A stretch of DNA of 64,000 bases from Bacteroidota bacterium (GTDB taxonomy: Bacteria; Bacteroidota; JABWAT01), in contig JAFLBE010000007.1 of the NCBI GenBank assembly GCA_017303995.1, positions 26,163 to 90,162 on the forward strand. Reading direction: 5' to 3'. Shown piece by piece: positions 1 through 42,965 of this stretch (within the stretch, counting starts at the first letter, position 1; every line of letters begins with the position of its first letter). Position numbers and translations under genes: made by a program. Below the pieces are notes generated by a model, which had not been told where the DNA came from, ran no database searches, and worked only from the letters and a program-made list of their open reading frames with translations.

Positions 1-75
1 TGGTTATATGGCTAAAGTGTAACGAAAAATATAATATATAGTTGGAAAAATATTATTATACCAAATATATTACGG

Positions 76-104
76 TTGACAAAATCGGTATAAATGTCTA
101 TTAT
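76..104 (+). promoter_or_regulatory. Sigma-70-like promoter TTGACA-N17-TATTAT(TG) about 290 nt upstream of cysH
   Basis: Read directly: ttgaca at 76-81, a 17-nt spacer, tattat at 99-104. It has the same architecture and the same TATTATTG extended -10 as the element at 34575-34603. Confidence 0.45.
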
Positions 105-280
105 TGTAACACAAAACAAAACTTTACAGAATAAACTGCTGTTATAAAAATAAATGCCGGATAATCTATTGATTTACCAGGCGGAGAAAAGTGATGAAGT
201 TGGAACAAGTCCCATTGACAACCTCTGAACAAGTTACCATTTCTTTGAACTTAATTTTTGCCTCTCATTATTCTTCCCGA

Positions 281-298
281 ATGACCTGCTGTTGTTGA
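281..298 (+). promoter_or_regulatory. Candidate cysteine-codon leader mini-ORF (ATG ACC TGC TGT TGT TGA = MTCCC) in the cys operon leader
   Basis: Three consecutive Cys codons sit ~100 nt upstream of cysH, inside a ~290-nt leader. A T-run (ccc ttttttt, 316-330) follows downstream. Confidence 0.3.
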
Positions 299-396
299 TT
301 CCATTCTGCCCCTGTTTAAATCTCCCTTTTTTTAATTTTAATCGGTTCTGAGAAATTAGAATCTATTGTCTTATCTCATTTATTTGGGGAAAACCC

Positions 397-1074
397 ATGT
401 CTGTGAATCATAATCAGCTTAATGGCATGCTGGATCTACTACCAGCTGAGCAGCGTGTCACCAAAATTGCAGAACATTTCAATAGTAGCCGGCTTGCAAT
501 TTCATCCAGTTTTGGAACCTTTTCCGCCGGGTTCCTTCATCTGGTTACTAAAATTTATCCGGAGATTCCTGTTCTTTTTCTGGATACAGGCTTTCATTTT
601 GAAGAGACACTTAAATTTCGTGATGAAGTAACAGAATTGCTTGGTTTGAACCTGATCAATCTCAAACCTGCAGTTTCAAAAAGCCAACTCTTTTCTGAAT
701 TGGGGGCTGAACCATTTAAATCCAATCCAGACCGGTGCTGCCAGGTAAATAAGGTTGACCCAATGGACTTAATCTTGAATGACTATGATCTCTGGATCTC
801 AGGAATCAGAAGCAGTCAGACTTCAAACCGAACAAATCTTTCTTATTTGACAACCAACATAAGGAATCAAACCAAGTTCCATCCAATTCTGGATTGGACT
901 TCAAAACAGGTTTGGGATTATTTACAGGAATATGAACTGCCTGTTCATCCACTATTTGAAAAAGGATTCACCAGTATTGGCTGTGAGCCTTGTACTTCTT
1001 TGGGGTCAGGTGATGCTGATGATCGTTCAGGTCGTTGGGGTGGTGATAAAAATGAGTGCGGACTTCATTTATGA
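397..1074 (+). CDS. cysH: Phosphoadenosine phosphosulfate/adenylylsulfate reductase (thioredoxin-dependent), APS-reductase type with Fe-S cysteine pairs
   Basis: PAPS reductase fold with the C-terminal ECGLH motif. It also has the CC (DRCCQVNK) and CxxC (SIGCEPCTS) cysteine pairs typical of [4Fe-4S] APS reductases. Confidence 0.9.
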   Translation: MSVNHNQLNGMLDLLPAEQRVTKIAEHFNSSRLAISSSFGTFSAGFLHLVTKIYPEIPVLFLDTGFHFEETLKFRDEVTELLGLNLINLKPAVSKSQLFSELGAEPFKSNPDRCCQVNKVDPMDLILNDYDLWISGIRSSQTSNRTNLSYLTTNIRNQTKFHPILDWTSKQVWDYLQEYELPVHPLFEKGFTSIGCEPCTSLGSGDADDRSGRWGGDKNECGLHL

Positions 1075-1868
1075 AACTGAAAAAGGGAAATTCCAGATTG
1101 AAATCTGGTGAAAAGGGAAAAGTATATCTGGTGGGCGCTGGAACAGGTGATCCTGAAGTGATTACAGTTAAGGCCCTTAGGTTGATTCGTCAGGCGGATG
1201 TTATTGTTTACGATTCATTGCTTCCGCAGGAACTTCTTGGAGAGGTAAAACCCTACGCTGAATTGGTTTATTGTGGTAAACGTGCCGGAAACCATCATTT
1301 AACCCAGGTTCAGATCAACCAGAAACTTGTTGACTCTGCAAGTTCCGGTAAAATGGTTGTCCGGTTAAAAGGTGGCGATCCTATGCTTTTTGGCAGGGGT
1401 GGAGAAGAAGCCATTTTTTTAAGTGAAAACAGAATACCCTTTGAATTTTGCCCGGGTGTTTCTGCTTTGCAGGTTTGTTCTTCTTACGCGAAAATTCCGT
1501 TGACTCACCGTGGACTCTCTTCAGCATTTATGGTTCTTTCAGGAGACTTTGCATCAATTGAAGATTTGGATTTTAATCTGCTTGCAAAATTTAAGGGTAC
1601 ACTGGTTTTCTTCATGGCACGATCGTCTGCCGGCAAAATAGCAGATCTTTTGGTCGAAGCTGGATCTGACCGGAATTTACCCGTTGCCTTTATTGAAAAT
1701 GGTGGAAGTTTAACTCAACGTGTTTTAACCGGTACTCTTGAAAAAATAAATGAACTTCATCCAGATAAGGATGCTCCGGTCTTGCTGATAATTGGAAAAA
1801 CAGTATTGCTGCACGACCGGCTGATTGAATCTGAAGCATTTAATTACGCGGCTTCTGTCCGTTTATAA
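1056..1868 (+). CDS. cobA: Uroporphyrinogen-III C-methyltransferase (SUMT) for siroheme synthesis
   Basis: VYLVGAGTGDPEVITVKA...VVRLKGGDPMLFGRGGEE are tetrapyrrole methylase motifs. It overlaps the cysH stop, so start M1056 or M1071 is possible. Confidence 0.9.
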   Translation: MRTSFMKLKKGNSRLKSGEKGKVYLVGAGTGDPEVITVKALRLIRQADVIVYDSLLPQELLGEVKPYAELVYCGKRAGNHHLTQVQINQKLVDSASSGKMVVRLKGGDPMLFGRGGEEAIFLSENRIPFEFCPGVSALQVCSSYAKIPLTHRGLSSAFMVLSGDFASIEDLDFNLLAKFKGTLVFFMARSSAGKIADLLVEAGSDRNLPVAFIENGGSLTQRVLTGTLEKINELHPDKDAPVLLIIGKTVLLHDRLIESEAFNYAASVRL

Positions 1869-1910
1869 ATTGGTATTAGTGAACCGGTTTTGGAAAACTG
1901 AAGGTGAAAA

Positions 1911-3554
1911 ATGGCAAAGGTTAATGTTGAAGAATTGAAATTAAATTCAGATGGACTTCGTGGCGATATTGTTTCTGAATTCTCAAATGAAAAGTCAAAT
2001 GTAACCGAAGAAACGTATCAGTTACTTAAATTTCATGGCATGTATCTGCAGGATGATCGTGACCAACGGAAGCAAAGATCGTCTCAGGGGCTGGAACGTG
2101 CCTTTTCCTTCATGATCCGGTCCCGGATTCCGGGCGGACTCATCAATCCGGCTCAATATCTGGCCCATGATAAAATCAGCGACCAGTGGGGAAATCATAC
2201 CCTTCGTATCACAACCCGTGAAGCCTTTCAGGTTCATGGCATTCTCAAGGGTGATGTAAAGTCTGTCATCCAAACGATTAATCAATCATTGCTATCCACC
2301 ATTTCTGCTTGTGGTGATGTAAACCGAAATGTTATCGTAACAACCGATCCGGTAAAATCAAAAGTAAACCTGCAATTACAGGTTCTGGCTGAAAAAATTG
2401 CAGACCATTTAACTCCTAAATCAACTGCCTATCATGAAATCTGGCTGAATGGTGAACCTGCACTAAAGGCCGTAGAAGAACCCATTTACGGGAAAACTTA
2501 CCTTCCAAGAAAATTTAAAATTGCAATTACAAAATTTGGAGATAACTCAATAGATGTATTCACAAATGATATCGGAATTGTAGCAATTTTAAGAAATGAC
2601 CAGATTTCAGGATACAATCTTTATCTCGGTGGTGGTTTGGGAAAAACCCACAATATGGAAGAAACGTTTCCACGGTTGGCTGATCCGCTTGGATTTGTAA
2701 AAGAAGAAAAAATTATCGAAGTCGTCGAAGCCATTGTAAAAGTTCAACGTGATCACGGCAACAGAGAAAACCGCAAACTGGCCAGAATGAAATATCTGGT
2801 TGCATCAAAAGGAATCAGTTGGTTTCATGACCGGGTTGCTGAATTTACAGGATTTAAACTGGATTCAATTGTTCCGGTTTCTGATTGGCAGTATGCCAAA
2901 TATCTGGGGTGGACAGATCAGCAGGATGGAAAATGGACGTATGGGTTGTTCGTTGAAAATGGCAGGATTCTAGATAAGGACGGCTTCAATTTAAAATCTG
3001 CACTCAAAAAAATTGCCACCAATTTTAATGTCAGTTTCAGACTGACCGCAACCCAGGATATTCAAATCAGAGACATCAGTGAGAAGGATAAACTAGTAAT
3101 CAGTGATTTGCTCGCTGATCATGGTGTTGGTTTTAGTGAATCCCATTCAGAAACCCGAACCGCATCGATTGCCTGTCCGGCACTTCCAACGTGCGGATTG
3201 GCTTTGACTGAATCTGAACGTGTAATGCCAGATATTATTTCTTTGATCGATAAGAACCTGACTGAAGCTGGTTTACCCAATTTTCAGATTGTAACACGAA
3301 TGACCGGTTGCCCTAACGGTTGTGCCAGACCTTATGCAGCAGAACTGGCCTTTGTAGGCAAATCTGGAATTAACTATGAAATTCATGTTGGTGGAAGTCA
3401 TAACGGGACAAGACTAACTCAGGTCTATCTGGATTCCTGGCCAGCTTCCCGTTTTGATGAACTTTTTAAAGATCTTTTCACCCGTTTTGCATCCGAAAAA
3501 AATGAAAATGAAACGTTTGGAGATTGGTCTAACCGGTCATTGTTAAACAGATAA
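1911..3554 (+). CDS. cysI: Assimilatory sulfite reductase hemoprotein (siroheme/[4Fe-4S], NirA/Sir/CysI family)
   Basis: Nitrite/sulfite reductase ferredoxin-like half-domain repeats. The cysteine cluster [10 protein letters not shown]...[10 protein letters not shown] binds siroheme and the Fe-S centre. Confidence 0.9.
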
Positions 3555-3558
3555 AAAA

Positions 3559-4617
3559 ATGAAAATAAAATCAAAATTAAAATCCCCGTTTTTTGAAATT
3601 GGTATTAAAATAGTTTGGTTCAGTTTTTCCATCCAGACAGTTTTCTGTGCATGTGGAAACAACGATTCAAAAACTATTACTTTGTTGAATGTTTCCTATG
3701 ATCCAACCCGGGAACTCTATCAGGAATATGATTCTGTTTTTGCTGCGTATTGGAAGGAAAAGACAGGGAAGATTGTTGAAATCCATCAATCACATGGCGG
3801 TTCGGGGAAACAGGCACGGGCTGTTATTGACGGATTAGAAGCAGATGTGATTACTCTGGCTCTTGCATTCGACATTGATAACATTGCTGAAAAAGCCAAT
3901 TTACTTCCGCCAGACTGGCAGCAACGACTTCCAAACAACAGTTCACCTTATACTTCTACGATCATTTTTCTGGTACGGAAGGGAAATCCCAAACAGATTA
4001 AGGATTGGGATGATTTAGTGAGGCCCGGTGTCTCTGTCATCACGCCAAACCCAAAAACCTCTGGGGGTGCACGGTGGAATTATCTGGCTGCCTTCGGTTT
4101 TGCACTTGAAAAATTCAAGAACGATTCAACAAAAGCTAAAGCTTTTTTGGCTGACCTTTTCAAAAATGTTCCTGTTCTTGATTCCGGGGCAAGAGGATCG
4201 GCAACAACTTTTACTGAACGTGGAATTGGTGATGTTTTGATTACCTGGGAAAATGAAGCCTATCTCATTCTCAACTTCCCGGAAAAAGACAACTATGAAC
4301 CTGTTTATCCATCGGTCAGTATTCTGGCAGAACCGCCGGTTGCAGTTGTTGATTCAGTTGCTGTAAAACACGGAAGCCATGAAGTTGCAAAGGCCTATCT
4401 GGAGTTCCTTTATGAGAAAAAAAGTCAGGAAATCATAGTAAAGAACTACTACCGTCCGAATAACCCTGAACTTGCAGAAATGTATAAGTCACAATTTCCT
4501 GCACTTCGTCAATTCACCATAGACAAAGATTTTGGCGGATGGAAGGTGGCACAAAAACTGCATTTTAGTGATGGCGGAATTTTTGACCAGATTTACAAAC
4601 CAACAGAGAAAAAATAA
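3559..4617 (+). CDS. sbp: Sulfate/thiosulfate ABC transporter substrate-binding protein
   Basis: Signal peptide plus a Sbp/CysP-like periplasmic binding fold ([18 protein letters not shown]). It sits immediately upstream of cysTWA. Confidence 0.85.
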
Positions 4618-4662
4618 GCATCAGGTTACCATTCATTTTTTTAATGCTTCCAGGTCAAATTT

Positions 4663-5499
4663 ATGTTCGAATTGAAAAAATCATTTTCGGTTCACAAAGG
4701 GTTCGGGTTAACACTCGGTATCACTTTGTTTTATTTAGGCCTGATGCTGATTATTCCGCTTTCAACCCTTTTCTTTAAAACATTTACACTGACCTGGGAC
4801 TCATTCTGGACAACAGTAACTGATGAAAGGGTGATGAGAGCCTATCAGGTCAGTTTTGGAACAGCATTTTTAGCTGCTGGAGTTAATCTGTTTTTCGGAA
4901 CGTTGATTGCCTGGGTTTTGGTTCGCTATCAGTTTTTCGGAAAAAGAATTCTTGATGCGCTGATTGATTTTCCCTTCGCTTTGCCAACTGCTGTTGCCGG
5001 AATTTGCCTGACAACACTTTTTGCCTCATCTGGATGGATTGGAAATCTTCTGGATGGATTTGGAATCCAGGTTGTATTTACACAATGGGGAATTACCATT
5101 GCTCTGATTTTTATTACACTTCCTTTCTCAGTGAGAAGTATTCAGCCGGTTCTTGAAGATTTGAATCCGGAGGTGGAAGAAGCTGCAATCAGTCTGGGTG
5201 CAAACCGGTGGCAGCTTTTTTCCAGAATTATTGTTCCTGAACTACTGCCAGCTGCCTTTGCAGGATTTACACTTTCTTTCGCCCGAGCCCTGGGTGAGTA
5301 CGGATCTGTTGTATTTATTTCAGGAAATCTTCCCTTTAAAACAGAAATCGCACCGCTGCTCATCGTTACGAAGCTTGAGCAGTACGATTATGCCGGTGCA
5401 ACCTCAATTGCAGTTGTGCTTCTCATCTTTTCATTTATCACCCTTATTATTCTGAACAGCCTGCAAAGTTTGAACAGAACCTGGAAAAGCAGGAACTGA
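4663..5499 (+). CDS. cysT: Sulfate ABC transporter permease CysT
   Basis: Polytopic permease with the EAA-like loop EEAAISLGANRWQLF, in the sbp-cysTWA arrangement. Confidence 0.9.
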   Translation: MFELKKSFSVHKGFGLTLGITLFYLGLMLIIPLSTLFFKTFTLTWDSFWTTVTDERVMRAYQVSFGTAFLAAGVNLFFGTLIAWVLVRYQFFGKRILDALIDFPFALPTAVAGICLTTLFASSGWIGNLLDGFGIQVVFTQWGITIALIFITLPFSVRSIQPVLEDLNPEVEEAAISLGANRWQLFSRIIVPELLPAAFAGFTLSFARALGEYGSVVFISGNLPFKTEIAPLLIVTKLEQYDYAGATSIAVVLLIFSFITLIILNSLQSLNRTWKSRN

Positions 5500-5501
5500 A
5501 A

Positions 5502-6380
5502 ATGTCTCACCATCCAATTCATAAACTGAACCGCCCCGGTGAAGGGAAACTTACTAAAATCGTTCTGATTTCAGTTGCTTTGATTTTTCTAAGTGTATTT
5601 CTGGTTCTTCCGTTGATTACAGTCTTTTATCAGGCGTTCAAGTTCGGAATTCAGCCCTATCTGGGTTATTTATCCGATCCGATGACAATAAGTGCCATTC
5701 AGATTACCTTAATTTCGGCAACTATTGCAGTTGTTCTTAATACTATTTTCGGGATTGCTGCCGCCTGGTTAATTTCAAAATTTGAATTCCCGGGAAAGAA
5801 AATTATTCTGACTTTAATTGATTTACCTCTCACCATTTCACCGGTTATCATCGGAATCATTTTCGTGTTTCTGGTTGGCGTTCATGGCTATTGGGGTGAG
5901 TTTTTCGCCTCACGTGGAATTAAAATCATTTTTGCGGTTCCGGGAATTGTTCTGGCTACAACTTTCGTCACGTTTTCGTTTGTCGCAAGGGAACTCATTC
6001 CGCACATGCAGGGGCAGGGAAATGAGGAAGAAGAAGCAGCCATTCTGCTGGGGGCCAGCGGATTTAAAACCTTTTTCCTGATCACCCTTCCGAAAATAAA
6101 ATGGAGTTTACTCTATGGTATAATTTTGTGCAATGCCCGTGCCTGTGGTGAATTTGGAGCCGTTTCTGTGGTTTCTGGGCACATTCGCGGATTGACAAAC
6201 ACACTTTCGCTCCATATCGAAATTCTTTACAACGAGTACAATATTGTTGCAGCGTTTGCGGTTGCTTCAATCCTGACCGTTCTGGCCTTAATTACTCTTA
6301 TCGTTAAAAAATTGATGGAATATTCTGAATCAAGAGATCTTGAAGCCCTTGAACCGGCAATTGCTGAGGTGAAATCATGA
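5502..6380 (+). CDS. cysW: Sulfate ABC transporter permease CysW
   Basis: Second permease with an [16 protein letters not shown] loop. Confidence 0.9.
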
Positions 6381-7399
6381 GTATCCAGATTGAAAATCTG
6401 ACCAAAAAGTTTGGCACTTTTACTGCTGTCGATCAGCTTTCCCTTACCGTCAATGATGGTGAACTATTGGCTTTGCTGGGTCCGTCTGGCTGCGGAAAAA
6501 CGACTTTACTGCGCATGATTGCCGGACTGGAAAACCCCGATCAGGGGACAATAAAATTTCAAGAAAATGAAAACCAGGTAATCGAAAACCGGATCGGATT
6601 TGTTTTTCAGCATTATGCCTTGTTCAGGCACATGACCGTTTTTGAAAATGTTGCTTTTGGGCTAAAAGTAAAACCACGATCCATCCGACCTTCAAAAGAA
6701 GAAATCAAAACAAAAGTTTTTGACCTGCTTAAAATGGTGCAGCTTGACTGGGCTGTGAACCGGTTACCCTCTGAACTTTCAGGTGGTCAGAGACAACGGG
6801 TTGCGTTGGCACGTGCGCTTGCCATTGAACCCAAAGTTTTGCTTCTCGATGAACCGTTTGGTGCGCTTGATGCAAAAGTCCGGAAGGAACTCCGTCGCTG
6901 GTTACGCCATCTTCATGACGAATTGAAAATTACAAGTGTGTTTGTAACTCACGATCAGGAAGAAGCCCTTGAAGTTTCTGACAGGATTGTCATCATGAAT
7001 CAGGGAAAAATTCTGCAGCAGGGAACGCCGGAAGAGGTCTATGCCCATCCGGCAAATCCGTTTGTGTTTAATTTTCTCGGAAATGTGAATCTTTTTCATG
7101 GACGGATTGAAAATGGTGAAGCCAATCAGGTCGGATTCGTCCGTCCGCATGACATCAGCCTCGAACTAACACCAAATGGATTGGATCGGTTTGAGGCTGT
7201 TGTTGACCGAGTATTTTCAATTGGAAACTTAACCCGGGTTGAGCTGAAATTAACTGAATCAGGACGATTTGTTGATTCAGAAATCACCAAGGAAACTTTT
7301 GATAAACTGCAAATTAAAACCGGCGATAAAGTTTTTATCAAATTGAATAAAATTAAAGTCTTTCAGGCAGATCAGAATCAACCTGAATACAGTATTTAA
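6377..7399 (+). CDS. cysA: Sulfate ABC transporter ATP-binding protein CysA
   Basis: Walker [13 protein letters not shown] signature [15 protein letters not shown], and a C-terminal TOBE/MOP-like domain. Confidence 0.9.
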
Positions 7400-7425
7400 A
7401 CTCGAATCAGAAAACGGGAGAAAAA

Positions 7426-7962
7426 ATGTCAAACGGATTTACCATTTGGTTAACCGGACATAGCGGTGCAGGAAAATCAACGCTTGCCCATGCACTTGAA
7501 AAGGAATTGACGTCCCGTCATATTTCTACCGAAGTTTTGGATGGTGATATAGTGAGGACAAATTTGTCTCAGGGATTAACTTTTTCACCTGAGGACAGGA
7601 ACATCAATGTTCAGCGGATCGGATTTGTTGCTTCGTTGCTTTCAAAGCATGGTGTAGGTGTTATTGTTTCAGCAATTTCCCCTTACAGGACGGCCCGGGA
7701 AAGCGTCAGGAAGTCAATTCCGGGATTTGTTGAGGTTTATGTGAATTGCCCGGTTGAAGAATGTGAACGCCGTGACGTGAAAGGACTTTATAAAAAAGCT
7801 AGAAACGGTGAAATCCCATCTTTTACCGGAATTAACGATCCATATGAACCACCTTTAAATCCTGAAGTGGAAGTCAGAACCGACCTGGAATCCCTTCAGG
7901 AATCCACCAGAAAAATCATCTGCTTTCTGGAACAACAAAATTTAATCGGGGAAATCAAATGA
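7426..7962 (+). CDS. cysC: Adenylylsulfate (APS) kinase
   Basis: P-loop [17 protein letters not shown] motif, [12 protein letters not shown]. Confidence 0.9.
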
Positions 7963-8840
7963 ATCAGCTTGATCAGTTGGAAGCCAGAAGTGTTTACATT
8001 TTTCGTGAAGCTTATGCCAATTTCAAAAATTTGTGTATGCTTTGGTCCATCGGGAAAGACAGTACTGTTTTGTTGTGGCTGGCCAGAAAAGCCTTTTTTG
8101 GTCATGTTCCATTTCCTCTGGTTCACATCGACACACATTATAAAATCCCGGCCATGATTGAATACAGAAATAAACTTGCTCTGGAGTTTAATCTGAATTT
8201 GATTTATGGTGAGAATACCGAAGCGTTGGCGAATAAACTGACCTTTCCTGATGGCAATGTTGACCGGCTGACCTGCTGTAAAAACCTGAAAGCGGATGCT
8301 TTGAAAAACACACTTTCAGGTGATTGGCCACGCTACAAATTGAATCATTCCAATGGCGAATTTGATCTGGACACAAACAGGGAAGCCTACACAGGCGTTA
8401 TTGTAGGGGCCCGTGCAGATGAAGAAGGAAGCCGTTCAAAGGAACGTTATTTTTCACCAAGGAATAAAGAAAGTTCGTGGGATGTGGGTGACCAACCGCC
8501 TGAATTCTGGAATCAATATAAAACTGATTTTGCTCCCGGAACCCACGTCAGAATTCATCCGCTTTTAGATTGGACTGAACTGAATATCTGGGAATATATC
8601 GAGAGGGAAAAAATCCCGACGGTTGATTTGTACTACAATCAGGGCGAAGGAAAACGGTTTCGTTCTCTCGGTTGCTGGCCCTGTACACATTCTGTCGATT
8701 CTGAAAGCAGGAATGTTGTCGAAATTATTGAAGAATTGAAAACTGGTAAATTTGCTAACATTGCAGAAAGATCTGGTCGCGCTCAGGATAAAGAAGATGG
8801 TGGCGGACTCGAAACCCTCAGAAGAGAAGGATATATGTAG
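7959..8840 (+). CDS. cysD: Sulfate adenylyltransferase subunit 2
   Basis: PAPS-reductase-like ATP pyrophosphatase fold ([13 protein letters not shown]). It lies directly upstream of cysN. Confidence 0.9.
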
Positions 8841-8842
8841 GG

Positions 8843-8877
8843 GAATAACGAATAACGAATAGCGAATTACGAAACGA
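8843..8877. repeat. Heptanucleotide tandem-repeat array 1 (GAATAAC x2, GAATAGC, GAATTAC, GAAACGA) in the cysD-cysN spacer
   Basis: Exact period-7 phasing read directly. It is followed by AGTTCTGCGATGCC (8878-8891) and then a CCCCCTCC hairpin. Confidence 0.7.
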
Positions 8878-8929
8878 TAGTTCTGCGATGCCAATTCAGA
8901 ATAATGGAAAACACCATTTTCTGAAATAC

Positions 8930-8948
8930 CCCCCTCCAACGGAGGGGG
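8930..8948. repeat. GC hairpin CCCCCTCC-aac-GGAGGGGG, a member of the CCCCTCC hairpin family
   Basis: Perfect 8-bp inverted repeat. The same stem sequence recurs at 38546-38566, 41433-41455 and 41513-41533. Confidence 0.7.
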
Positions 8949-8997
8949 AATGGGGGTGGGTTGGTATGTTTACTCCTGAAAACACGAAAAAATAAAA

Positions 8998-10641
8998 GTG
9001 AAACTTATGCATTTACTCCGTACCCAAATGAATATCGTGATCTGTGGACATGTTGACCACGGGAAAAGCACTGTTGTTGGTCGGCTTTTAGCCGATACGA
9101 ACTCACTTCCGACCGGGAAACTTGATCAGGTCAGGGCAAATTGTGAACGAAATTCAAAACCGTTTGAATATGCCTTTCTTCTTGATGCCCTGAAAGATGA
9201 ACAATCACAGGGCATTACCATTGATGCTGCACGTGTTTTCTTCAAAACCCAATCCCGTGATTATATCATCATCGATGCACCCGGTCATATTGAATTTCTG
9301 AAAAATATGGTTACCGGTGCTTCACGTGCTGAAGCAGCTTTACTGGTTATTGATGCAAAAGAAGGCGTCAAAGAAAATTCGAAACGTCACGGATATTTGC
9401 TTTCCATGCTTGGCATTTCCCAAGTTGTCGTTCTAATTAATAAAATGGATTTGGTTGGATACTCAGAAGATATTTACAACTCCATTTCTTCAGAATATCG
9501 TGCTTTTCTGAGCCAGGTTGGTATAAATCCGGCGTCGATTATTCCGATTTCTGGCCGGGAAGGTGATAATCTGGTTTCGGTCAGTCAAAATATGCCCTGG
9601 TATTCTGGTACGTCGGTTTTAACCCAGCTTGATTCGTTTAAAAAGGAAAAACAACCGGTTGAAAGTCCGTTCCGGCTGCCTGTTCAGGATGTTTATAAGT
9701 TTACTGCAAATGGCGATGACCGGCGGATTGTGGCCGGAACGATTGAATCCGGCCGGATTCAGATTGGTGATGAAATCACATTTTATCCGTCAGGGAAGAC
9801 AGCAAAAATTGCAACAATTGAGAGTTTTAACACTGCCTTGAAATCAAAGTCAGAAGCTGGTGATGCAACTGGGTTTACACTTGATCAGCAGATTTACATC
9901 ACCCGTGGCGAACTGGTAGCAAAAGTAGGTGAGTTAAAACCGGTTTGTTCTTCTCTGATCAGGGTTAATTTGTTTTGGCTCGGAAGGAATCCGTTGGTGA
10001 AAGGGAAGGATTATTTTCTTAAAATCGGGACATCAAGAGTGAAAATGAAACTCGAAACTGTTCACAAACTTCTTGATGCCGTTAATCTGGAGACTTTGGA
10101 ATCAGCAACACAAATTAACCGTCACGATGTTGCAGATTGTACTTTCCGTCTTGCAAAACCTGTGGCATTTGATCTTACCTCTGATTTCGCAGGAACCTCC
10201 CGTTTTGTTATCGTTGATGATTATGAAATCAGTGGTGGCGGAATTATAAAAGAGGCCATTGACGACGCCAATCTTGCAGACAATAGCTGGAAAAAGAATT
10301 TACTCAAATGGGAAATAGTAAACGAAAACCGTGAGTTAAAAATCAGGTTTGATTCTGAAGCCGGCAATTTGATTTTAATTTCCGGTACAGATCATCAGGA
10401 TGCGATTAATCTGGCTGCTGAAAAAGAACGTGAACTCCTGCTTCTGGGAGAAAAGCCAATTGTGATTTCAATTTCTGATGATTTATCATTTGCCGATACC
10501 AGTATTTATCAGACTGATACAACCCGTGAACAACAAGTTCAGTTTTTATCAGGATTTCTTCCGGTTTTACTGAATAACGGGTCAACTATTATTATTTCAG
10601 CTACCCGGTTAACTGAAGATGAAACGAAATTATTAGTTTGA
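8998..10641 (+). CDS. cysN: Sulfate adenylyltransferase subunit 1 (GTPase) with an unusual ~115-aa C-terminal extension
   Basis: EF-Tu-like GTPase GHVDHGKST...DAPGH...NKMD. At 547 aa it is ~70 aa longer than canonical CysN. The tail (LILISGTDHQD...) lacks a P-loop. Confidence 0.9.
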   Translation: MKLMHLLRTQMNIVICGHVDHGKSTVVGRLLADTNSLPTGKLDQVRANCERNSKPFEYAFLLDALKDEQSQGITIDAARVFFKTQSRDYIIIDAPGHIEFLKNMVTGASRAEAALLVIDAKEGVKENSKRHGYLLSMLGISQVVVLINKMDLVGYSEDIYNSISSEYRAFLSQVGINPASIIPISGREGDNLVSVSQNMPWYSGTSVLTQLDSFKKEKQPVESPFRLPVQDVYKFTANGDDRRIVAGTIESGRIQIGDEITFYPSGKTAKIATIESFNTALKSKSEAGDATGFTLDQQIYITRGELVAKVGELKPVCSSLIRVNLFWLGRNPLVKGKDYFLKIGTSRVKMKLETVHKLLDAVNLETLESATQINRHDVADCTFRLAKPVAFDLTSDFAGTSRFVIVDDYEISGGGIIKEAIDDANLADNSWKKNLLKWEIVNENRELKIRFDSEAGNLILISGTDHQDAINLAAEKERELLLLGEKPIVISISDDLSFADTSIYQTDTTREQQVQFLSGFLPVLLNNGSTIIISATRLTEDETKLLV

Positions 10642-10659
10642 AAACTAATTAGTTAAGGT

Positions 10660-11238
10660 GTGAAAATGTCGCTGTATCCAGTTTTTTTTAAACTTGAAGG
10701 TCGATGCGTTTCCTTAATTGGCGGCGGAAAGCTGGCAGCTGAAAAACTCAGGGGGTTGAACGGTACCGGTGCCTCAATAAAAATCATTGCACCCGAATTG
10801 TCTGATGAAACCCGCTTTTGGATGGAAAAACTGAATTGCCGATGGATTGCCAGTCAGTTTGAGCCTTGTATGCTCACCGGAAGCTGTTTGGTTATTGCCG
10901 CAACCGATGATGAATTTGTTAACAATGAGGTCAGAGTTGCCGCCCAAAGCAGAGGGATTCCGGTAAACGTTGCAGACAGAAATGAGTTGTGTGACTGGTA
11001 TAACGGATCAGTCGTTTCACGTGGTGATTTTCTTCTGGCATTTTCTTCCAACGGAAAATCGCCGGCTTATCTGTCGTGGATGAGAGAACAATTGGATACT
11101 TTGATTCCATCTGATGAAGATGAATTTATTGCTGAACTTGGCGAAATCAGAGAAAAAATGAAAATATTTGGATTATCACCAGCACAACGTTCTGCCTGGT
11201 TCAGAGAGAAATTTACTGAACTGCAAAAGTCACTTTAA
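10660..11238 (+). CDS. sirC: Precorrin-2 dehydrogenase / sirohydrochlorin ferrochelatase (CysG N-terminal domain-like, SirC/Met8 family)
   Basis: Rossmann motif VSLIGGGKLAAEKL at the N-terminus. At 192 aa it fits the siroheme synthase N-domain. Confidence 0.8.
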   Translation: MKMSLYPVFFKLEGRCVSLIGGGKLAAEKLRGLNGTGASIKIIAPELSDETRFWMEKLNCRWIASQFEPCMLTGSCLVIAATDDEFVNNEVRVAAQSRGIPVNVADRNELCDWYNGSVVSRGDFLLAFSSNGKSPAYLSWMREQLDTLIPSDEDEFIAELGEIREKMKIFGLSPAQRSAWFREKFTELQKSL

Positions 11239-11325
11239 TTAGGGAATTCCTGAAAACAGGACATTCACCATGGTTTCAGTCTGGAAACGGATTGAATATT
11301 CTGTTGGATTCAAAATAGTAGCGCC

Positions 11326-12264
11326 ATGATGTCAACATCGATTTTAAAACTTATCATATCCGTTCGCTCCTTCCTTGATTCCACCGGAAGAAACTTTGAA
11401 GTTTTCACAAAGCCCGACGGTTCTCCAGTTACAACATCCGATATCGGTGTTCAGATAGTGATCAACCGGTTTTTAATGGAAAACTACTCGGATGATAAAT
11501 GGATTTCTGAAGAATCAGATTCTGGTTTGCCTGAATCGTTTCTCCAAAAAGTCACCAATCTTCTCAGAGAATCAGATCCGGACTTTAAACTTTCAAGCAC
11601 TGAAATTGCGCAGATTTTATCAAATCGTGGAAATCAGAACGGAGCGTCGTGGTGGATGGTGGATCCGATTGATGGAACAAGAGGATTTTTAAGAAACGAA
11701 CAATTTTCAGTCTGTCTTGCACGCTTTACAGAGGGGAAACCTGTATTTGGGTTACTGATTTGTCCGAATTTACCTTTTCCAAGGTTAGACTCACCAGAAA
11801 CCGGAACTATTTTTTATTGGGAAAAGGGAAGTGAACCTGTTCAGTTTTCGTACTGGAACTTTGAAATAAAAACCCAAATAAGTGTAAATAAAAACCCAAC
11901 CGGAATTTTACTGACAAGTGTTGAACGTGATCATTCCCGAATGGAAAAGGTAGAAAAAATAAGCCAAGGGGCAGGTTTCGGGAAGATTCTATCGTTCGAT
12001 AGTCAGGTGAAATACGGATTGTTAGCCCGGGGTGAAGCAGAAGCGCTGCTCAGAATTCCGGGTTCTGCAACTTACAAGGAAAAAGTTTGGGATCATGCTG
12101 CAGGTTTGGGCATTCTGGAAGCTGCAAGTGGGCAGGTTTCTGATGTTAACGGATTGCCGTTTTACTTTTCCGGAGAAGAAACACTCAGTAAAAATTTTGG
12201 ATTACTTGCTTCAAACGGTATCCGCCATTTTTCGATACTTAAACAGATCGAAGAAATCCGGTGA
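11326..12264 (+). CDS. cysQ: 3'(2'),5'-bisphosphate nucleotidase (PAP phosphatase), inositol monophosphatase family
   Basis: WMVDPIDGTRGF metal-binding motif and the WDHAAG motif. It is the last gene of the sulfur cluster. Confidence 0.8.
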   Translation: MMSTSILKLIISVRSFLDSTGRNFEVFTKPDGSPVTTSDIGVQIVINRFLMENYSDDKWISEESDSGLPESFLQKVTNLLRESDPDFKLSSTEIAQILSNRGNQNGASWWMVDPIDGTRGFLRNEQFSVCLARFTEGKPVFGLLICPNLPFPRLDSPETGTIFYWEKGSEPVQFSYWNFEIKTQISVNKNPTGILLTSVERDHSRMEKVEKISQGAGFGKILSFDSQVKYGLLARGEAEALLRIPGSATYKEKVWDHAAGLGILEAASGQVSDVNGLPFYFSGEETLSKNFGLLASNGIRHFSILKQIEEIR

Positions 12265-16290: not shown

Positions 16291-16332
16291 GGTTTTCAGA
16301 AAAATTGCCGGATTATTTGCTGTTATAAATAG

Positions 16333-16372
16333 GATGTCATCCCCGTCCCGAAAGCTTTCGGGACGGGGATCC
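16333..16372. repeat. TGTCATCC-family nested palindrome (ATCCCCGTCCCGAAAGC/TTTCGGGACGGGGAT)
   Basis: Perfect 17-bp inverted repeat headed by GATGTCATCC. Related copies are at 33251, 42966/43031, 45291 and 58042. Confidence 0.7.
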
Positions 16373-16573
16373 ATGCCTTTCTTCACCAATTTCGATTTTC
16401 CCCTCCAAATAAACCCCTTTCTCATATTCATCCGAATAATAATCGTAGTAATTGAATTATTCAGAATTATATTCATTTATTTTTCTCGTAAACGTGTATT
16501 GTATAAATAATAGTTGGTATTATCTTTGTAATCCAAATTATATTCAACGGTAAAACAGGTAAGGAAATTCTGA

Positions 16574-17710
16574 ATGAAGTTCTCAACTAAAGCCATTCAT
16601 ACGGGTGTAAATAAAGATTCTGCCTACAATAGTGTCATCACGCCTATTTATCAAACCTCTACCTTTCGTTTTGAAGACATTGGGACTACAAAGGGATATG
16701 ATTACACCCGTTCCGGAAATCCGACCCGGACTGCCCTCGAAGAATGTCTGGCTGATCTCGAAGGCGGACTTTTAGCGCGTGCAGTAGCAACGGGTATGGC
16801 TGCCATTAACGTAGCTCTTCATTTTGTGAAAACCGGCGAACATATCATTTCTACCAATGATTGTTATGGCGGAACGGAACGTTTACTTCGTATTTATTCT
16901 GGTCTGTATGGCATTGAAGTGACATTTGTCGATATGACTGATCTGGAAAAAGTCCGACAGGCAGTAAAGCCGAACACCCGCCTGGTCTGGATTGAAACGC
17001 CAAGCAATCCGCTTCTGAATGTTGTTGATATTAGAGCTCTTACTGACATTGCCCATCAGAATCATGCTTTGGCTGCAGTTGACAATACCTTTCTTTCTCC
17101 TTATTTCCAGCGGCCGTTTGAACTTGGCGCTGATATCGTTATTCACTCCACTACAAAATATCTGAACGGACACAGTGATGTTGTCGGTGGGGCAGTCATT
17201 GTAAATAATCAGGAGCTCGGAACCCGACTTTCTGAACTTGTGAATGCACTGGGACAAAGTCAGGCACCTTTTGATGCATGGCTGGTTTTGCGTGGAATAA
17301 AAACACTGGTTCCAAGAATGAAAGCTCACGAAGAGAACGCCAATAAACTGGCAAAATTTCTTGATCAGCACCCGAAAGTTGCAAAAGTTAACTATCCCGG
17401 TTTGCCAACGCACCCGCATCACGAACTCGCCAAAAAGCAGCAATCCGGTTTTGGCGGAATGATATCTTTTGAGGTTAAGGGTGGAATTGGAAATGTGAAC
17501 AAACTCCTGAAAGCGACCCGGATATTTGCAATTGCCGAATCGCTTGGTGGAATTGAATCACTTATTTGCCACCCGGCAACCATGACTCATGCTTCCATGA
17601 ATCCTGAGCTAAGAGAGAAGGCCGGTATCAATGAACGGGTTATCCGTCTCTCTGTCGGAATTGAAGATATCGATGATTTGATTGGAGACCTGAATCAGGC
17701 ATTAGGATAA
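16574..17710 (+). CDS. metB: PLP-dependent cystathionine gamma-synthase/gamma-lyase family enzyme (Cys/Met metabolism)
   Basis: Cys/Met-metabolism PLP fold (YTRSGNPTR..., TKYLNGHSDVVGG lysine region). 378 aa. Confidence 0.85.
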   Translation: MKFSTKAIHTGVNKDSAYNSVITPIYQTSTFRFEDIGTTKGYDYTRSGNPTRTALEECLADLEGGLLARAVATGMAAINVALHFVKTGEHIISTNDCYGGTERLLRIYSGLYGIEVTFVDMTDLEKVRQAVKPNTRLVWIETPSNPLLNVVDIRALTDIAHQNHALAAVDNTFLSPYFQRPFELGADIVIHSTTKYLNGHSDVVGGAVIVNNQELGTRLSELVNALGQSQAPFDAWLVLRGIKTLVPRMKAHEENANKLAKFLDQHPKVAKVNYPGLPTHPHHELAKKQQSGFGGMISFEVKGGIGNVNKLLKATRIFAIAESLGGIESLICHPATMTHASMNPELREKAGINERVIRLSVGIEDIDDLIGDLNQALG

Positions 17711-34574: not shown

Positions 34575-34603
34575 GTTGACATGCTGAGAATCCTTTCTTA
34601 TTA
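34575..34603 (+). promoter_or_regulatory. Sigma-70-like promoter TTGACA-N17-TATTAT(TG) for the ilv-leu leader
   Basis: ttgaca at 34575-80, 17-nt spacer, tattat at 34598-603. Same TATTATTG extended -10 as the cys promoter at 76-104. Confidence 0.45.
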
Positions 34604-34655
34604 TTGCCTAAGCAATTAAGAAAAACACGACAACAACTTTACTTTCTTAAACAAT

Positions 34656-34799
34656 ATGAACCATATGCAAACATACTCTTCCGCAATACCGGTCGACTCC
34701 GCATATGGAAATTCATTGCCCTATTTTATCAACCTACCGAACCTTCTGCTTCTTGTGGGCCTTACTATTCTACTTCTTGGTATTATTACCCTGAAATAA
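34656..34799 (+). promoter_or_regulatory. Candidate branched-chain-amino-acid leader peptide (47 aa: MNHMQTYSSAIPVDSAYGNSLPYFINLPNLLLLVGLTILLLGIITLK) upstream of ilvB
   Basis: My own translation; the ORF is below the track's size cut-off. 15 of the last 18 codons are Leu/Ile/Val. It starts ~50 nt after the promoter, and a ggtcagcct...aggctgacc hairpin (34809-34855) follows. Confidence 0.4.
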
Positions 34800-35128
34800 G
34801 AACATAGTGGTCAGCCTGCATAACCCGATTTAACAACAAAACAAAAAGGCTGACCAGCCTGAAGAACCAGCCGGAACGGCAGACCCAGATTTCATTTTTG
34901 AACTGAGGTTTTTATGTTTGACTGGATGTTTGTTTCACCTGATTCCTGCAAACGAATGCAGAATGAAGATTTGTTTTGCCCCGCCCGGCATTCCAGATCT
35001 GCCTGCTATTCTTCCCCAAGTATTTCTGCATTAAACATCCCGGTTCAGACTTCAGCCACACTTCCCGATTTTATTTTTCAATTATCAAATAGCCTGTTAA
35101 GCAGCGTAAATAATCAACGGAGTCAAGT

Positions 35129-36856
35129 ATGAGCCAGACACACCGTGAAATGAACGGAGCCGAAATTTTTCTGGAATCACTTAGAAAAGAGGGCGTGGAT
35201 ATCATTTTTGGATATCCGGGCGGAGCTGTTCTAGGGATTTATGATAAACTTTATGACTGTGATTTTATCCACCACATCCTGGTTCGTCATGAGCAGGGAG
35301 CTGCACATATGGCAGAAGGTTATGCAAAAGCAACCGGGAAAGTCGGCGTAGTACTGGTGACTTCAGGTCCGGGTGCAACCAACACAGTTACAGGAATTGC
35401 TGATGCTTATATGGATTCAATTCCCATCGTGGTTTTTACGGGTCAGGTTCCGTCAAAATTGATTGGAAATGATGCTTTTCAGGAAGCTGATATTGTCGGA
35501 ATCACCCGTCCAATCACCAAACACAATTTTCTCGTTCGTGAAGTTGATGAACTCGCTTCTACGATTAAAAAAGCATTTTTCATTGCTTCAACAGGACGGC
35601 CTGGTCCTGTTCTGGTTGATATGCCCAAAGATATGCTGGCTAAAATTACCAAGTTTATCTATCCGGATCATGTTGAAATCCGGGGTTACAAACCCACCTA
35701 TTCGGGACATTCCCAGCAAATCAAAAAAGCAGCAAATGCGTTAAGAAAAGCAAAACGCCCGCTTCTTTATGTTGGCGGCGGTGTTGTGATGTCAAATGCA
35801 GACCGTGAACTCACTTTGCTTGCCCGTGAAACCGGCATCCCGGTCACGATGACCCTTCAGGGGTTGGGTTCCTTCCCGATGACAGATGATTTGTCTCTGG
35901 GCATGTTGGGCATGCATGGTACTTTCTGGGCGAACATGGCTACTGAAAATTGTGATCTTCTGATTTCTCTGGGTGCCCGTTTTGATGATCGGGTGACAGG
36001 AAATACAGAAACTTTTGCAAAAGATGCCTATAAAATCCAGGTTGATATTGATCCGACTGCAATTGACAAAAATGTTAAAGTTGATCTGCCGATTGTGGGT
36101 GACCTTAAAAATGTTCTGGCTGAACTTCTCACCGAATTGGCTGAAAAACCGGTTACAACAGATTTTACAGACTGGTGGTCGATGATCACCAAGTGGAAGG
36201 ATGCATGTCCGCTTGAATTTGAAAATTCTGATGGCAAACTTCGTGCACAATATGTGCTTCAGCGGTTATCCAAAATGACTAAAGGTGAAGCAGTAGTGGT
36301 CACCGATGTGGGTCAGCATCAGATGTGGACGACCCAATGGTACGAATTCAACCATCCGCGGTCACACATCACTTCCGGAGGACTGGGAACCATGGGATTT
36401 TCAGTTCCGGCAGCAATTGGTGCAGCTTTTGCGATTAAAGACCGTCCGGTTATTTCAATTTCCGGTGATGGCGGATTTCAGATGAATATGCAGGAGCTGA
36501 TAACGGCTGCTGCGTATAAACTTCCCATCAAATTTATCATTCTGAATAACAGTTTTCTGGGAATGGTTCGCCAATGGCAGGATTTGTTCTACAAGGAAAA
36601 ATACAGTTTTACTGATTTGTCAAAAACAAATCCGAACTTTGTAAAAGTTGCAGAAGCTTTCGGTTGCAAAGCCATGTCTACAGACAATCCGGCAGAAGTT
36701 GACGGGTTGATCAATGAAATGATGGAATATAATGACGGACCTGTTCTGGTTGAATTTAAGGTGGTGAAAGAGGAGATGGTGTTCCCGATGGTTCCGTCGG
36801 GTGGTTCCATACGTGACATCATGGTAAAGCGTCTTGATCCGAACCGGCTCGTTTAA
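35129..36856 (+). CDS. ilvB: Acetolactate synthase large subunit (TPP-dependent)
   Basis: TPP enzyme domains and GDGGFQMN thiamine-binding motif. 575 aa. Confidence 0.95.
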   Translation: MSQTHREMNGAEIFLESLRKEGVDIIFGYPGGAVLGIYDKLYDCDFIHHILVRHEQGAAHMAEGYAKATGKVGVVLVTSGPGATNTVTGIADAYMDSIPIVVFTGQVPSKLIGNDAFQEADIVGITRPITKHNFLVREVDELASTIKKAFFIASTGRPGPVLVDMPKDMLAKITKFIYPDHVEIRGYKPTYSGHSQQIKKAANALRKAKRPLLYVGGGVVMSNADRELTLLARETGIPVTMTLQGLGSFPMTDDLSLGMLGMHGTFWANMATENCDLLISLGARFDDRVTGNTETFAKDAYKIQVDIDPTAIDKNVKVDLPIVGDLKNVLAELLTELAEKPVTTDFTDWWSMITKWKDACPLEFENSDGKLRAQYVLQRLSKMTKGEAVVVTDVGQHQMWTTQWYEFNHPRSHITSGGLGTMGFSVPAAIGAAFAIKDRPVISISGDGGFQMNMQELITAAAYKLPIKFIILNNSFLGMVRQWQDLFYKEKYSFTDLSKTNPNFVKVAEAFGCKAMSTDNPAEVDGLINEMMEYNDGPVLVEFKVVKEEMVFPMVPSGGSIRDIMVKRLDPNRLV

Positions 36857-36877
36857 GTCATGGAAACAGGTAAACCT

Positions 36878-37393
36878 ATGAAAAAAATTATATCCGTATT
36901 AGTTGAAAACAAATTTGGCGCTTTGAACCGGGTTGCAACCATGTTCAGTGGCCGTGGCTTCAATATCCATTCCATTTCCATCGGGGTTACTGAAGATCCT
37001 GAAGTATCACGGATGACGATTGTGACTTCCGGTGAAGCAAACATTCTTGATCAGGTTATCAAGCAATTAAACCGGCTTATTGATATTATTAAAGTGATCG
37101 ATTTGTCTGCAGAACATCATGTTGCCCGTGAACTTGCCATGATTTCAGTGAATTACCAGAAGGGAATCCGTTCTGAAATTATGAATATCTGCGAAGTCTT
37201 TCAGGGAAAAGTCGTTGATATCACCATCAAGTCCATTACGATCGAAGTTACCGGACCGCCTGATAAAATCGATGCCATTATCAATATGTTAACTCCTTAC
37301 GGAATCAAAGATGTTGCCCGTTCAGGACTTGTTGCCCTGAAAAGAGAAGAACAAATTATTATCAAACCGAAAAAAGAAGTCACCATTTCGTGA
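36878..37393 (+). CDS. ilvN: Acetolactate synthase small (regulatory) subunit, ACT domain
   Basis: ISVLVENKFGALNRVATMFSGRGFNI ACT motif. The start is at MKKII (aggt 7 nt upstream); the alternative is M36860. Confidence 0.85.
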   Translation: MKKIISVLVENKFGALNRVATMFSGRGFNIHSISIGVTEDPEVSRMTIVTSGEANILDQVIKQLNRLIDIIKVIDLSAEHHVARELAMISVNYQKGIRSEIMNICEVFQGKVVDITIKSITIEVTGPPDKIDAIINMLTPYGIKDVARSGLVALKREEQIIIKPKKEVTIS

Positions 37394-37439
37394 TTGCTTC
37401 TTGAAAACTCAATTTTAAACAAACAACGAAGGACAACCC

Positions 37440-38456
37440 ATGAAAGTGTATTACAGTGATGACGCCTCCCTTGATAATCTTAAAGGGAAAAAAGTTGCCG
37501 TTATCGGTTTCGGAAGTCAGGGACACGCACATTCCCTGAACCTGATGGACAGCGGAATGAATGTTACCGTTGGATTACGGAAAGAAAGTGCAAGCTGGGC
37601 AAAAGCTGAAGCTGCCGGTCTTGCTGTAAAAACAGTTTCTGATGCTTCTGCATGGGCCGATATCATCATGATTTTGCTTCCTGATCAGACTCAAAAAGCT
37701 GTTTATGATGCTGAAATTGCACCTCACTTGACTGCCGGAAAAACCCTGGCTTTTGCACACGGATTCAATATTCACTTCAAGGTTATTGTTCCTCCCGCAA
37801 ATGTGAACGTGATCATGATTGCACCCAAAAGCCCCGGTCACCTGGTTCGCCGTACTTACGTTCAGGGCAATGGTGTTCCTTGTTTGATTGCTATTCATCA
37901 GGATGCAACCGGCAATGCTTTGGCTTTGGCTTTGGCCTGGTCAAAGGGAATTGGCGGAACCTTCGCTGGTGTAATTGAAACTACTTTCAAAGATGAAACT
38001 GAAACTGATTTGTTTGGCGAGCAGGCTGTTCTTTGCGGCGGATCTGCAGAAATCATCAAAGCAGGTTTTGAGACTCTGGTTGAAGCAGGTTACCCAGCTG
38101 AACTGGCTTATTTCGAATGTATGCACGAACTGAAACTGATCGTTGACCTGTATTATGAAGGCGGACTTACCCGCATGAACTATTCAGTTTCTGATACCGC
38201 AGAATATGGTGGAATGACCCGCGGACCACGTCTGGTTACCGGCGAAACCAAAAAAGAAATGAAGAAAATTCTGGAAGAAATCCAATCCGGCCAATTTGCA
38301 AAAGAATTTTTGGCTGAAACCAATGGCGACAAAGCCAATTTTGAAAAGCTCCGGAAAGAAAACCGTGAACATCCGATTGAAAAAGTTGGAACCAAACTTC
38401 GCGGAATGATGAGCTTCCTGTTCAAAAAAGACAAACGTGAAGAAGTAGGCGTTTAA
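37440..38456 (+). CDS. ilvC: Ketol-acid reductoisomerase (class I)
   Basis: [20 protein letters not shown] motif, [11 protein letters not shown]. 338 aa. Confidence 0.95.
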
Positions 38457-38462
38457 TAACCA

Positions 38463-38634
38463 GTGACAAGTTACAAGTGACAAGTTACAAGTGGTAAGTT
38501 ATAAGTGACAAATTACAGGTTACGGGTGACACGAGAATAAAAACTCCCCTCCTTTTTAAGGAGGGGAAATCAGTCGTAAGACTGATGGGGTGGTTCGGTC
38601 TTTGGCCCACGTCCCATGTCCCCTGTCACTTGTC
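38463..38634. repeat. 172-bp composite intergenic element: left heptamer array 4 (10 units), CCCCTCC hairpin, right inverted heptamer array (MITE-like terminal inverted arrays)
   Basis: Left array GTGACAA GTTACAA ... GTGACAC (38463-38532). Hairpin CCCCTCCTT-ttt-AAGGAGGGG (38546-66). Right array GTCCCAT GTCCCCT GTCACTT GTCACCA (38607-34) is in inverse orientation. Confidence 0.65.
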
Positions 38635-38662
38635 ACCAGCATTTTAAAAGAAAGCAAGTTCA

Positions 38663-39760: not shown

Positions 39761-39791
39761 TTTCATTCATTAACTAAAACACGATACGACC

Positions 39792-42933: not shown

Positions 42934-42965
42934 GGAAAGATTTGTTTTAAAATTTGGTTAACGTG

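Follow-up and report, generated by a model that had tools for sequence, protein, structure and literature searches.

The window analysed here, the whole stretch of 64,000 nucleotides (nt) of contig JAFLBE010000007.1, opens with a sulfate-assimilation gene cluster headed by cysH, and the subject of this work is the leader in front of cysH, which carries a short open reading frame (ORF) ending in three cysteine codons. The genes of the cluster, assigned with Pfam, lie on one strand with short gaps and probably form one operon. Their order is cysH, uroporphyrinogen methylase, sulfite reductase, sulfate-binding protein, cysT, cysW, cysA, cysC, cysD and cysN, and the last genes encode a siroheme-synthase domain protein and a CysQ-like phosphatase. 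The cysH operon makes the sulfide used for cysteine synthesis. The cysH start at 397, as read in an earlier note made from the letters of the window, was confirmed by the ATG found there and by the match of the product to PAPS_reduct with an E value of 2.8e-46. The near-perfect sigma-70 promoter that the same note had placed at 76-104 is likewise read in the sequence, reaches 11/12 in the promoter scan and is kept in the relatives described below. From this promoter, transcription would start near 111-113. A match of this kind is not rare in such an AT-rich region, where 5 sites were found against 3.1 expected. The main features of the leader and of the genes behind it are as follows.

Positions 76 to 106, + strand: promoter, with TTGACA at 76-81, a 17-nt spacer, TATTAT at 99-104 and TG at 105-106.
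Positions 183 to 186, + strand: Shine-Dalgarno-like GGAG, 7 nt before the ATG at 194.
Positions 194 to 298, + strand: leader ORF of 34 codons plus stop, from ATG 194 to TGA 298, with the peptide MKLEQVPLTTSEQVTISLNLIFASHYSSRMTCCC followed by the stop.
Positions 287 to 295, + strand: TGC TGT TGT, three Cys codons in tandem that are proposed to act as the sensor, with the TGA stop (296-298) directly after them.
Positions 397 to 12264, + strand: presumed controlled operon.

The leader ORF had first been noticed as a mini-ORF, ATG ACC TGC TGT TGT TGA, at 281-298. These letters are present as described, but they are only the in-frame tail of the longer ORF at 194-298. This longer ORF could also start at an in-frame GTG at 191, and it is given as 191-298 in the ORF list. 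A GGAG-like 4-mer, as found in front of ATG 194, precedes the start in only 21 of the 54 window genes, and the sequence before ATG 281 is pyrimidine-rich and holds no start signal. The Cys triplet itself was compared with all runs of three TGY codons (Y, pyrimidine) in the window. Nine such runs occur on the two strands, so that a run within a 290-nt leader would be expected by chance with a probability of about 0.04; all the others lie out of frame inside genes. The triplet taken alone is therefore weak evidence, and its significance rests on conservation in relatives.

The CysH protein of the window is 100% identical to a protein from a metagenome-assembled genome labelled 'Bacteroidetes bacterium' at NCBI, and the nearest named relatives of the window IlvB are from Ignavibacteria and Melioribacteraceae, at 72-74% identity. 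On these two grounds the host belongs to the Fibrobacterota-Chlorobiota-Bacteroidota (FCB) group, to which the earlier note had assigned it from gene content with reserve. In a profile search, the CysH clade of the window is made of six clusters, small and well separated, with scores of 397-442 bits versus at most 286 bits for all else. The clade comprises five lineages, all metagenome-derived, and four independent leaders are readable, that of the window included. The other four lineages are listed here with their loci.

L001, L024 and L025, BAC1 lineage: CysH 77-79% identical to that of the window, full leader.
L026 to L029, GCA_013360915.1 lineage: CysH 56% identical to that of the window, full leader.
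L031 and L032, ENA lineage: CysH 53% identical to that of the window, full leader.
L030, short-contig lineage: CysH 82% identical to that of the window, sequence beginning just 3' of the putative ORF stop.

The leaders are identical within L026-L029 and within L031/L032, and thus offer no polymorphism for covariation. The next-closest CysH proteins (P0007, P0008, P0009, P0010, P0018 and P0121) were set aside because cysH is not the first gene at their loci, which makes them uninformative on the leader. A metagenome scan with the CysH profile gave, among the matches listed, only distant proteins (at most 48% identity), which were used as background only.

The same arrangement, namely a promoter, an ORF of 34-44 codons, 3-5 C-terminal Cys codons and a TGA stop, was found in all four readable lineages, whose CysH proteins are 53-79% identical, and the distance from the stop of the leader ORF to cysH ranges from 72 to 143 nt. 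The peptides of the three relatives are the following.

L001 leader peptide: MMLERLRRIRRINSERISAAVFTPNLPGFESRMTCCC, then stop.
L026 leader peptide, TTG start: THSSPRLAISDFVAVGPAIRFPVLSVSSLCCCC, then stop.
L031 leader peptide: MNPDFSLLKDDLPDQINLSNIFNSVLEIRSFSNSVACCCPAVCC, then stop.

The C-termini in the four lineages read CCC, CCC, CCCC and CCCPAVCC, in each case directly before the stop. The Cys-containing frame is open back to a start codon located 30-36 codons upstream in 4/4 lineages, and a purine-rich motif is present 4-8 nt before this start in every one of them (GGAG in the window, and GGGGA, AGGTG and AAGGT). In dinucleotide shuffles, a start followed by an open frame as long as the observed one arises with a probability of 0.038, 0.036, 0.15 and 0.07 for the individual lineages, with a product of 1.5e-5. 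The promoters are TTGACA-N17-TATTAT in L001 and TTGACA-N18-TATAAT in L026, the latter with a score of 12/12 and both at a position equivalent to that of the window, and TTGCAT-N17-TATTAT in L031, also read as TTGCAT-N17-TATTATTG. The tandem Cys codons, for which the earlier note had proposed a comparison of orthologous leaders, are kept in every leader recovered. The same comparison disposes of the five-codon MTCCC as a unit: L026 and L031, two of the four lineages, have no ATG beside the Cys run, so that the mini-ORF cannot be the common unit, and the translated unit in the window would be the 34-codon ORF 194-298.

In an alignment of the four peptides, the start Met and CCC are the only invariant residues. 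The ORF, its start signals, the terminal Cys run and the promoter are conserved while the peptide sequence is not. This bears on the idea that the product of the ORF is a small cysteine-rich protein with a function of its own, for example one that binds metal or sulfur or is lipidated, and that the ORF is co-transcribed with the cys genes without a role as a sensor. The conserved ORF length and start signals would suit such a protein, and an independent small-protein role was left open for some mycobacterial small ORFs (sORFs) by Canestrari et al. (10.1101/834739). Nevertheless, nothing beyond Met1 and the Cys run is conserved in the four lineages, the composition of the peptides goes from highly charged (L001) to hydrophobic (L026), and Pfam and NCBIfam searches with the leader peptides matched no family. 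We consider a small functional protein quite improbable.

The frequency of comparable ORFs outside the clade was estimated from 99 other cysH loci. A complete ORF (start to stop) whose last six codons include CC lies at most 400 nt upstream of cysH in three of them, compared to 4/4 in the clade (Fisher p = 8e-6), and none of the three is convincing. A Saprospiraceae ORF ending in KKCCPMNWTN (L021/L022) was rejected, as it is contained, in a different frame, in an upstream coding region whose translation, judged by eye, is siroheme-synthase-like. At a distant high-GC locus, L050, an ORF ending in MTFSSAARRACCACCCARSLGSGHGGAVVSS before its stop, with five Cys codons, is located about 192 nt upstream of cysH; this ORF may be a Cys leader of the actinobacterial type.

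We then considered how a leader of this kind could act on the operon. The earlier note had suggested an attenuator of the classical trp type, in which the five-codon MTCCC mini-ORF would govern an intrinsic terminator ending in a T-run, and it had placed this run at 322-330. The actual run of seven T lies at 327-333. In favour of the proposal, ATG 281 is present in both the window and L001, the T7 run stands 29 nt 3' of the stop, and a comparable position in L030 is occupied by a T6 run. The remaining evidence points the other way. No hairpin was found before the T7 run, and terminator scans detected no intrinsic terminator on the + strand 3' of the ORF in the window, L001, L026 or L031. The T-run is absent in L001, the nearest full-length relative, as well as in L026 and L031, and is not part of a terminator. 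The folding energy of the whole leader equals that of shuffled sequences (z = 0.12), and free and ribosome-masked folds (minimum free energy and constrained) revealed no terminator/antiterminator scheme common to the lineages. The mutually exclusive hairpins expected to overlap the Cys codons were not encountered as a pair in any lineage. Moreover, the start that the mini-ORF would need is missing from L026 and L031 and, in the window, follows the signal-free pyrimidine-rich sequence mentioned above. Since there is no terminator, the T-run is not kept and the leader presents neither excess nor shared alternative structure, classical trp-type attenuation is not supported; intrinsic termination of the classical kind is unlikely, and the trp-type scheme as a whole is barely credible. 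The only + strand terminator hit among the four leaders scanned lies upstream of the ORF: in L031, a terminator-like hairpin with T6 (2646-2677) directly follows the putative start of transcription, where it may stabilise the 5' end as a stem-loop or serve as an extra control point.

One local structure of the spacer between the ORF and cysH was found at a similar place in several lineages, as judged from single-sequence folds.

Positions 339 to 368, + strand: hairpin H2, UAAU-C-GGUUCUGA-GAAA-UUAGAAUC-U-AUUG, -8.1 kcal/mol, z = -2.6.
L001, about 2951-2978: hairpin at the H2 position, z = -3.3.
L030, 48-72: hairpin at the H2 position, z = -3.1.
L031, 2902-2975: hairpin at the H2 position, z = -3.7.

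These hairpins differ in sequence, lie roughly 25-35 nt upstream of the cysH start and have no counterpart in L026. H2 is not followed by a U-run and so does not qualify as a canonical terminator.

Conservation at the nucleotide level was also compared between the window and L001. The two leaders are 52% identical overall, and the best 20-nt windows of their alignment reach 19/20 identities; these start at 275-280, jointly cover 275-299 and all include the Cys codons. The single change in this block is a synonymous TGC to TGT in the Cys codons. The 12 nt before the Cys codons are nucleotide-identical between the two, UCCCGAAUGACC is identical between them, and TGTTGTTGAT is identical in all four lineages. 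This raises the possibility of an element acting at the RNA or DNA level without translation, such as a riboswitch not recognised so far or a site bound by a regulator (protein or small RNA), with the open frame as an incidental feature. The conservation of UCCCGAAUGACC and TGTTGTTGAT exceeds what a peptide would need, and H2 is structurally conserved in four lineages, both in favour of such an element. However, as the product of probabilities given above indicates, chance would hardly give four lineages an open frame that has both a start and a purine-rich motif, and the sole substitution in the block is a synonymous one. No excess structure is seen in the leader. In addition, a search of Rfam 15 with positions 1-600 of the window returned only a spurious snoRNA match at E values up to 10, and the whole window gave nothing at the gathering score. 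An untranslated element is thus an unlikely explanation.

The interpretation with the best support is sensing through ribosomes that stall on the terminal Cys codons. It fits the anatomy of the leader, the pathway encoded by the operon and an experimental precedent. We propose, with a probability of roughly 0.7, that the leader ORF 194-298 senses cysteine shortage by ribosome stalling and controls the sulfate-assimilation operon. When Cys-tRNA(Cys) is plentiful, ribosomes would translate the ORF to its end and come off the RNA, and cysH and the genes behind it would continue to be expressed at a low level. When cysteine is scarce, a ribosome would stall on the terminal Cys codons, covering about 270-310, and expression of the operon would rise. 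Some points weigh against this proposal. Translation of the ORF, stalling of the ribosome and the direction of the regulation are what we infer from sequence, and the independent leaders number only four. In addition, the 12-nt identity between the window and L001 and the four-lineage identity of TGTTGTTGAT could reflect a function at the RNA level that is free of translation.

Two ways in which the stalled ribosome could raise expression were considered, and they involve the following parts of the leader.

Positions 274 to 284, + strand: block A, UUCCCGAAUGA, directly 5' of the Cys codons and complementary to 380-390.
Positions 299 to 333, + strand: pyrimidine-rich, G-poor tract directly 3' of the stop, including the T7 run at 327-333; candidate Rho entry site.
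Positions 380 to 399, + strand: cysH translation start region, consisting of UUAUUUGGGGA (block B, 380-390), AAACCC and the ATG at 397-399.

In the first version, (a), the stalled ribosome would free the cysH start region from the pairing of 274-284 with 380-390, block A being predicted to lie under a ribosome stalled at the Cys codons. The mycobacterial sORF Ms5788A is a demonstrated case of this mode of action (10.1101/834739). Block A is the best 16-nt leader partner of the cysH start region, with 11 contiguous pairs and -13.0 kcal/mol, and both CTCATTTAT and GGAAAAYCCATG are shared by the window and L001. In three of the four lineages (window, L026 and L031), the Cys zone holds the segment that pairs best with the start region; in L001 the corresponding segment ranks fourth. 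Masking of the stalled footprint in L026 raised the predicted accessibility of the start region from 0.37 to 0.74, with its peak exactly at the position that places the first Cys codon in the A-site. Against this version, the RNAduplex energies are no better than those of dinucleotide shuffles (p = 0.2-0.68), and masking leaves the predicted accessibility unchanged in L001 and L031 and lowers it in the window (0.54 to 0.30).

In the second version, (b), the stalled ribosome would keep Rho off the pyrimidine-rich, G-poor tract that starts after the stop, as in the tna operon. In tnaC of E. coli, the ribosome held at the end of the ORF adjoins a Rho entry site located after the stop, and its occupancy prevents premature termination. 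The first 70 nt after the stop in the window have a pyrimidine fraction of 0.66, at the 98th percentile of the window, and a density of YC dinucleotides at the 95th percentile. A post-stop pyrimidine tract is present in four of the five lineages (window, L001, L030 and L031), at the 87th-98th percentile. The C/G ratio is 1.5-1.8 in the four complete spacers versus about 1.0 in cysH, and the partial upstream stretch of L030 holds 26 C to 9 G, so that C exceeds G in all five lineages. Version (b) fits the Cys run that always abuts the stop, the tract behind it and the absence of a terminator. On the other side, the excess of C over G is modest, and L026 has no post-stop tract. If the sensor is real, the freeing of the start region appears possible on the present analysis, if tentative, and the exclusion of Rho is put forward with the same reserve, the two being about equally likely. 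The lineages may also differ in the version that they use.

Leaders with cysteine codons have precedents upstream of actinobacterial cys genes, as the earlier note had mentioned (PMC1262725; 10.1101/834739). The mycobacterial polycysteine leaderless sORFs are experimentally shown cysteine-responsive attenuators (10.1101/834739, Canestrari et al. 2020). Among them, Rv2334A has a C-terminal Cys tract and is found upstream of cysK1-cysE, and in Ms5788A a ribosome stalled in the Cys tract blocks an RNA duplex that hides the ribosome-binding site that serves the next gene (10.1101/834739). As in these sORFs, the cistron that opens a cysteine-metabolism operon is a short ORF containing Cys codons in succession, and only the Cys tract is strongly conserved. 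Unlike them, the window ORF belongs to the FCB group and not to Actinobacteria and presents no sequence homology. It is also not leaderless: about 80 nt and a GGAG precede it, counted from the presumed transcription start, and its own start lies about 90 nt past the -10 hexamer. The window genome, in contrast to the mycobacterial hosts, uses few Shine-Dalgarno sites, and the sequestering duplex in the window leader is, unlike that of Ms5788A, without statistical support.

Computational work by Seliverstov et al. in 2005 had predicted actinobacterial leader peptides for cys and cbs, with runs of Cys codons close to the stop, and had found no terminator hairpin to be conserved (PMC1262725). As polyY motifs were noted in the spacers, a Rho-dependent, tna-like control was suggested (PMC1262725). 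The anatomy is the same in the window, with a Cys run near the stop, no terminator and a pyrimidine-rich spacer. The taxa are different, as are the genes, cysH and sulfate uptake here versus the 'cys operon' and cbs there, and in the actinobacterial set, which is computational, polyY is not conserved. The terminator-free layout is the same unexplained anatomy that was noted for Actinobacteria in 2005.

In Rhodobacterales, the uORFC-8-2 motif upstream of cysS is a tandem-Cys upstream ORF proposed to sense the charging of Cys-tRNA (PMC8632094). The window leader resembles it in the tandem Cys codons of an upstream ORF and in the proposed signal. It differs in that uORFC-8-2 has two mid-peptide Cys codons (positions 14-15) located in a stem, a clear intrinsic terminator with a U-run, and a tRNA synthetase gene downstream, in alpha-proteobacteria. 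The window leader is like trpL, hisL and ilvL in that an ORF rich in codons for the end product stands upstream of a biosynthetic operon. Those attenuators rely on terminator/antiterminator hairpins and a U-run, which the window leader does not have. With tna, the shared trait is the end of a leader ORF next to a candidate Rho entry site just after the stop. TnaC stalling is caused by free tryptophan acting on the nascent peptide, whose sequence matters, and the operon is inducible by the amino acid; the stall proposed here would come from a shortage of charged tRNA, and the peptide is not conserved. A further attenuator of this classical, terminator-based kind is the Bacteroid-trp motif (RF01692) in Bacteroidetes. 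The motif is listed in PMC2864571.

Within the literature searched, no Cys leader was reported for Bacteroidota, Ignavibacteriota or other FCB bacteria, in line with the view of the earlier note that such a case would be outside the described ones. Mycobacteria are the only bacteria in which Cys-codon leader ORFs have been demonstrated; the further cases are predictions, in a few Actinobacteria and alpha-proteobacteria. The window element functions, under the stalling interpretation, like the mycobacterial and actinobacterial Cys leaders and is not homologous to them, and its occurrence in the FCB group suggests an independent origin in distant phyla. It provides an annotation rule for the clade, an unannotated CCC-ending ORF upstream of cysH, and a compact test case for stalling control, of Rho access or of start-site accessibility, in bacteria with little use of Shine-Dalgarno sites. 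The scope is that of a small clade and of an inferred mechanism, and the concept itself is not new.

A second leader of the window, in front of ilvB, presents a parallel.

Positions 34576 to 34606, + strand: ilv promoter, TTGACA-N17-TATTATTG.
Positions 34656 to 34799, + strand: candidate ilv leader ORF of 47 codons, MNHMQTYSSAIPVDSAYGNSLPYFINLPNLLLLVGLTILLLGIITLK and stop, ending in LPNLLLLVGLTILLLGIITLK, with a Leu/Ile/Val-rich C-terminus.

This ORF lies 330 nt upstream of ilvB (35129), which heads an ilvBNC-leu-thr cluster (35129-50060), and from its sequence it is a candidate ilv/leu leader peptide; it could instead encode a small membrane peptide. In a relative, L122 (1110-1370; IlvB 80% identical), a leader ORF MNQ...PTLLLAGLVILLSGIITLG is present and its C-terminus is conserved. 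A helix GGTCAGCCTGCAT...AGGCTGA after the stop of the ilv ORF is common to the window (34576-34861) and L122. No + strand terminator was found at the ilv leader, either by the terminator scan in the window or on reading L122. Given this parallel, the clade appears to use long leader ORFs with C-terminal sensing codons for more than one amino-acid operon. It is conceivable, if doubtful, that the clade has its own attenuator style for several amino-acid operons (at least cys and ilv/leu), in which ORFs of 34-47 codons, not leaderless but with a 5' untranslated region before them, would carry the sensing codons at their extreme C-terminus, no intrinsic terminator would be involved, and the stalled ribosome would exclude Rho from a pyrimidine-rich entry site starting at the stop. 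If true, this would be a starvation-sensing version of the tna mechanism. To our knowledge, control of this type has been proposed and never demonstrated for biosynthetic operons.

Elsewhere in the window, a 283-nt non-coding region (16291-16573) stands upstream of a gene for a pyridoxal phosphate-dependent enzyme of Cys/Met metabolism (16574-17710); it holds no Rfam match and no ORF with a Cys or Met run. On the opposite strand, a promoter-like site at 55-82 (-), TTGTCA-N16-TATAAT with an upstream TG and a score of 11/12, overlaps the -35 region of the cys promoter. As the window begins at position 1, a gene divergent from the cys operon and served by this site would fall outside the view.

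Finally, a TG is found directly 3' of the -10 hexamer in all six promoters examined (four cys and two ilv), giving TAnnATTG, at the following sites.

Window, 99-106: cys promoter.
Window, 34599-34606: ilv promoter.
L001, 2701-2708: cys promoter.
L026, about 2771-2778: cys promoter.
L031, about 2632-2639: cys promoter.
L122, about 1130-1137: ilv promoter.

The Bacteroidetes -7 motif is TAnnTTTG. TAnnATTG resembles this motif, and its combination with a sigma-70-like TTGACA suggests that this FCB clade has promoters of a hybrid form.

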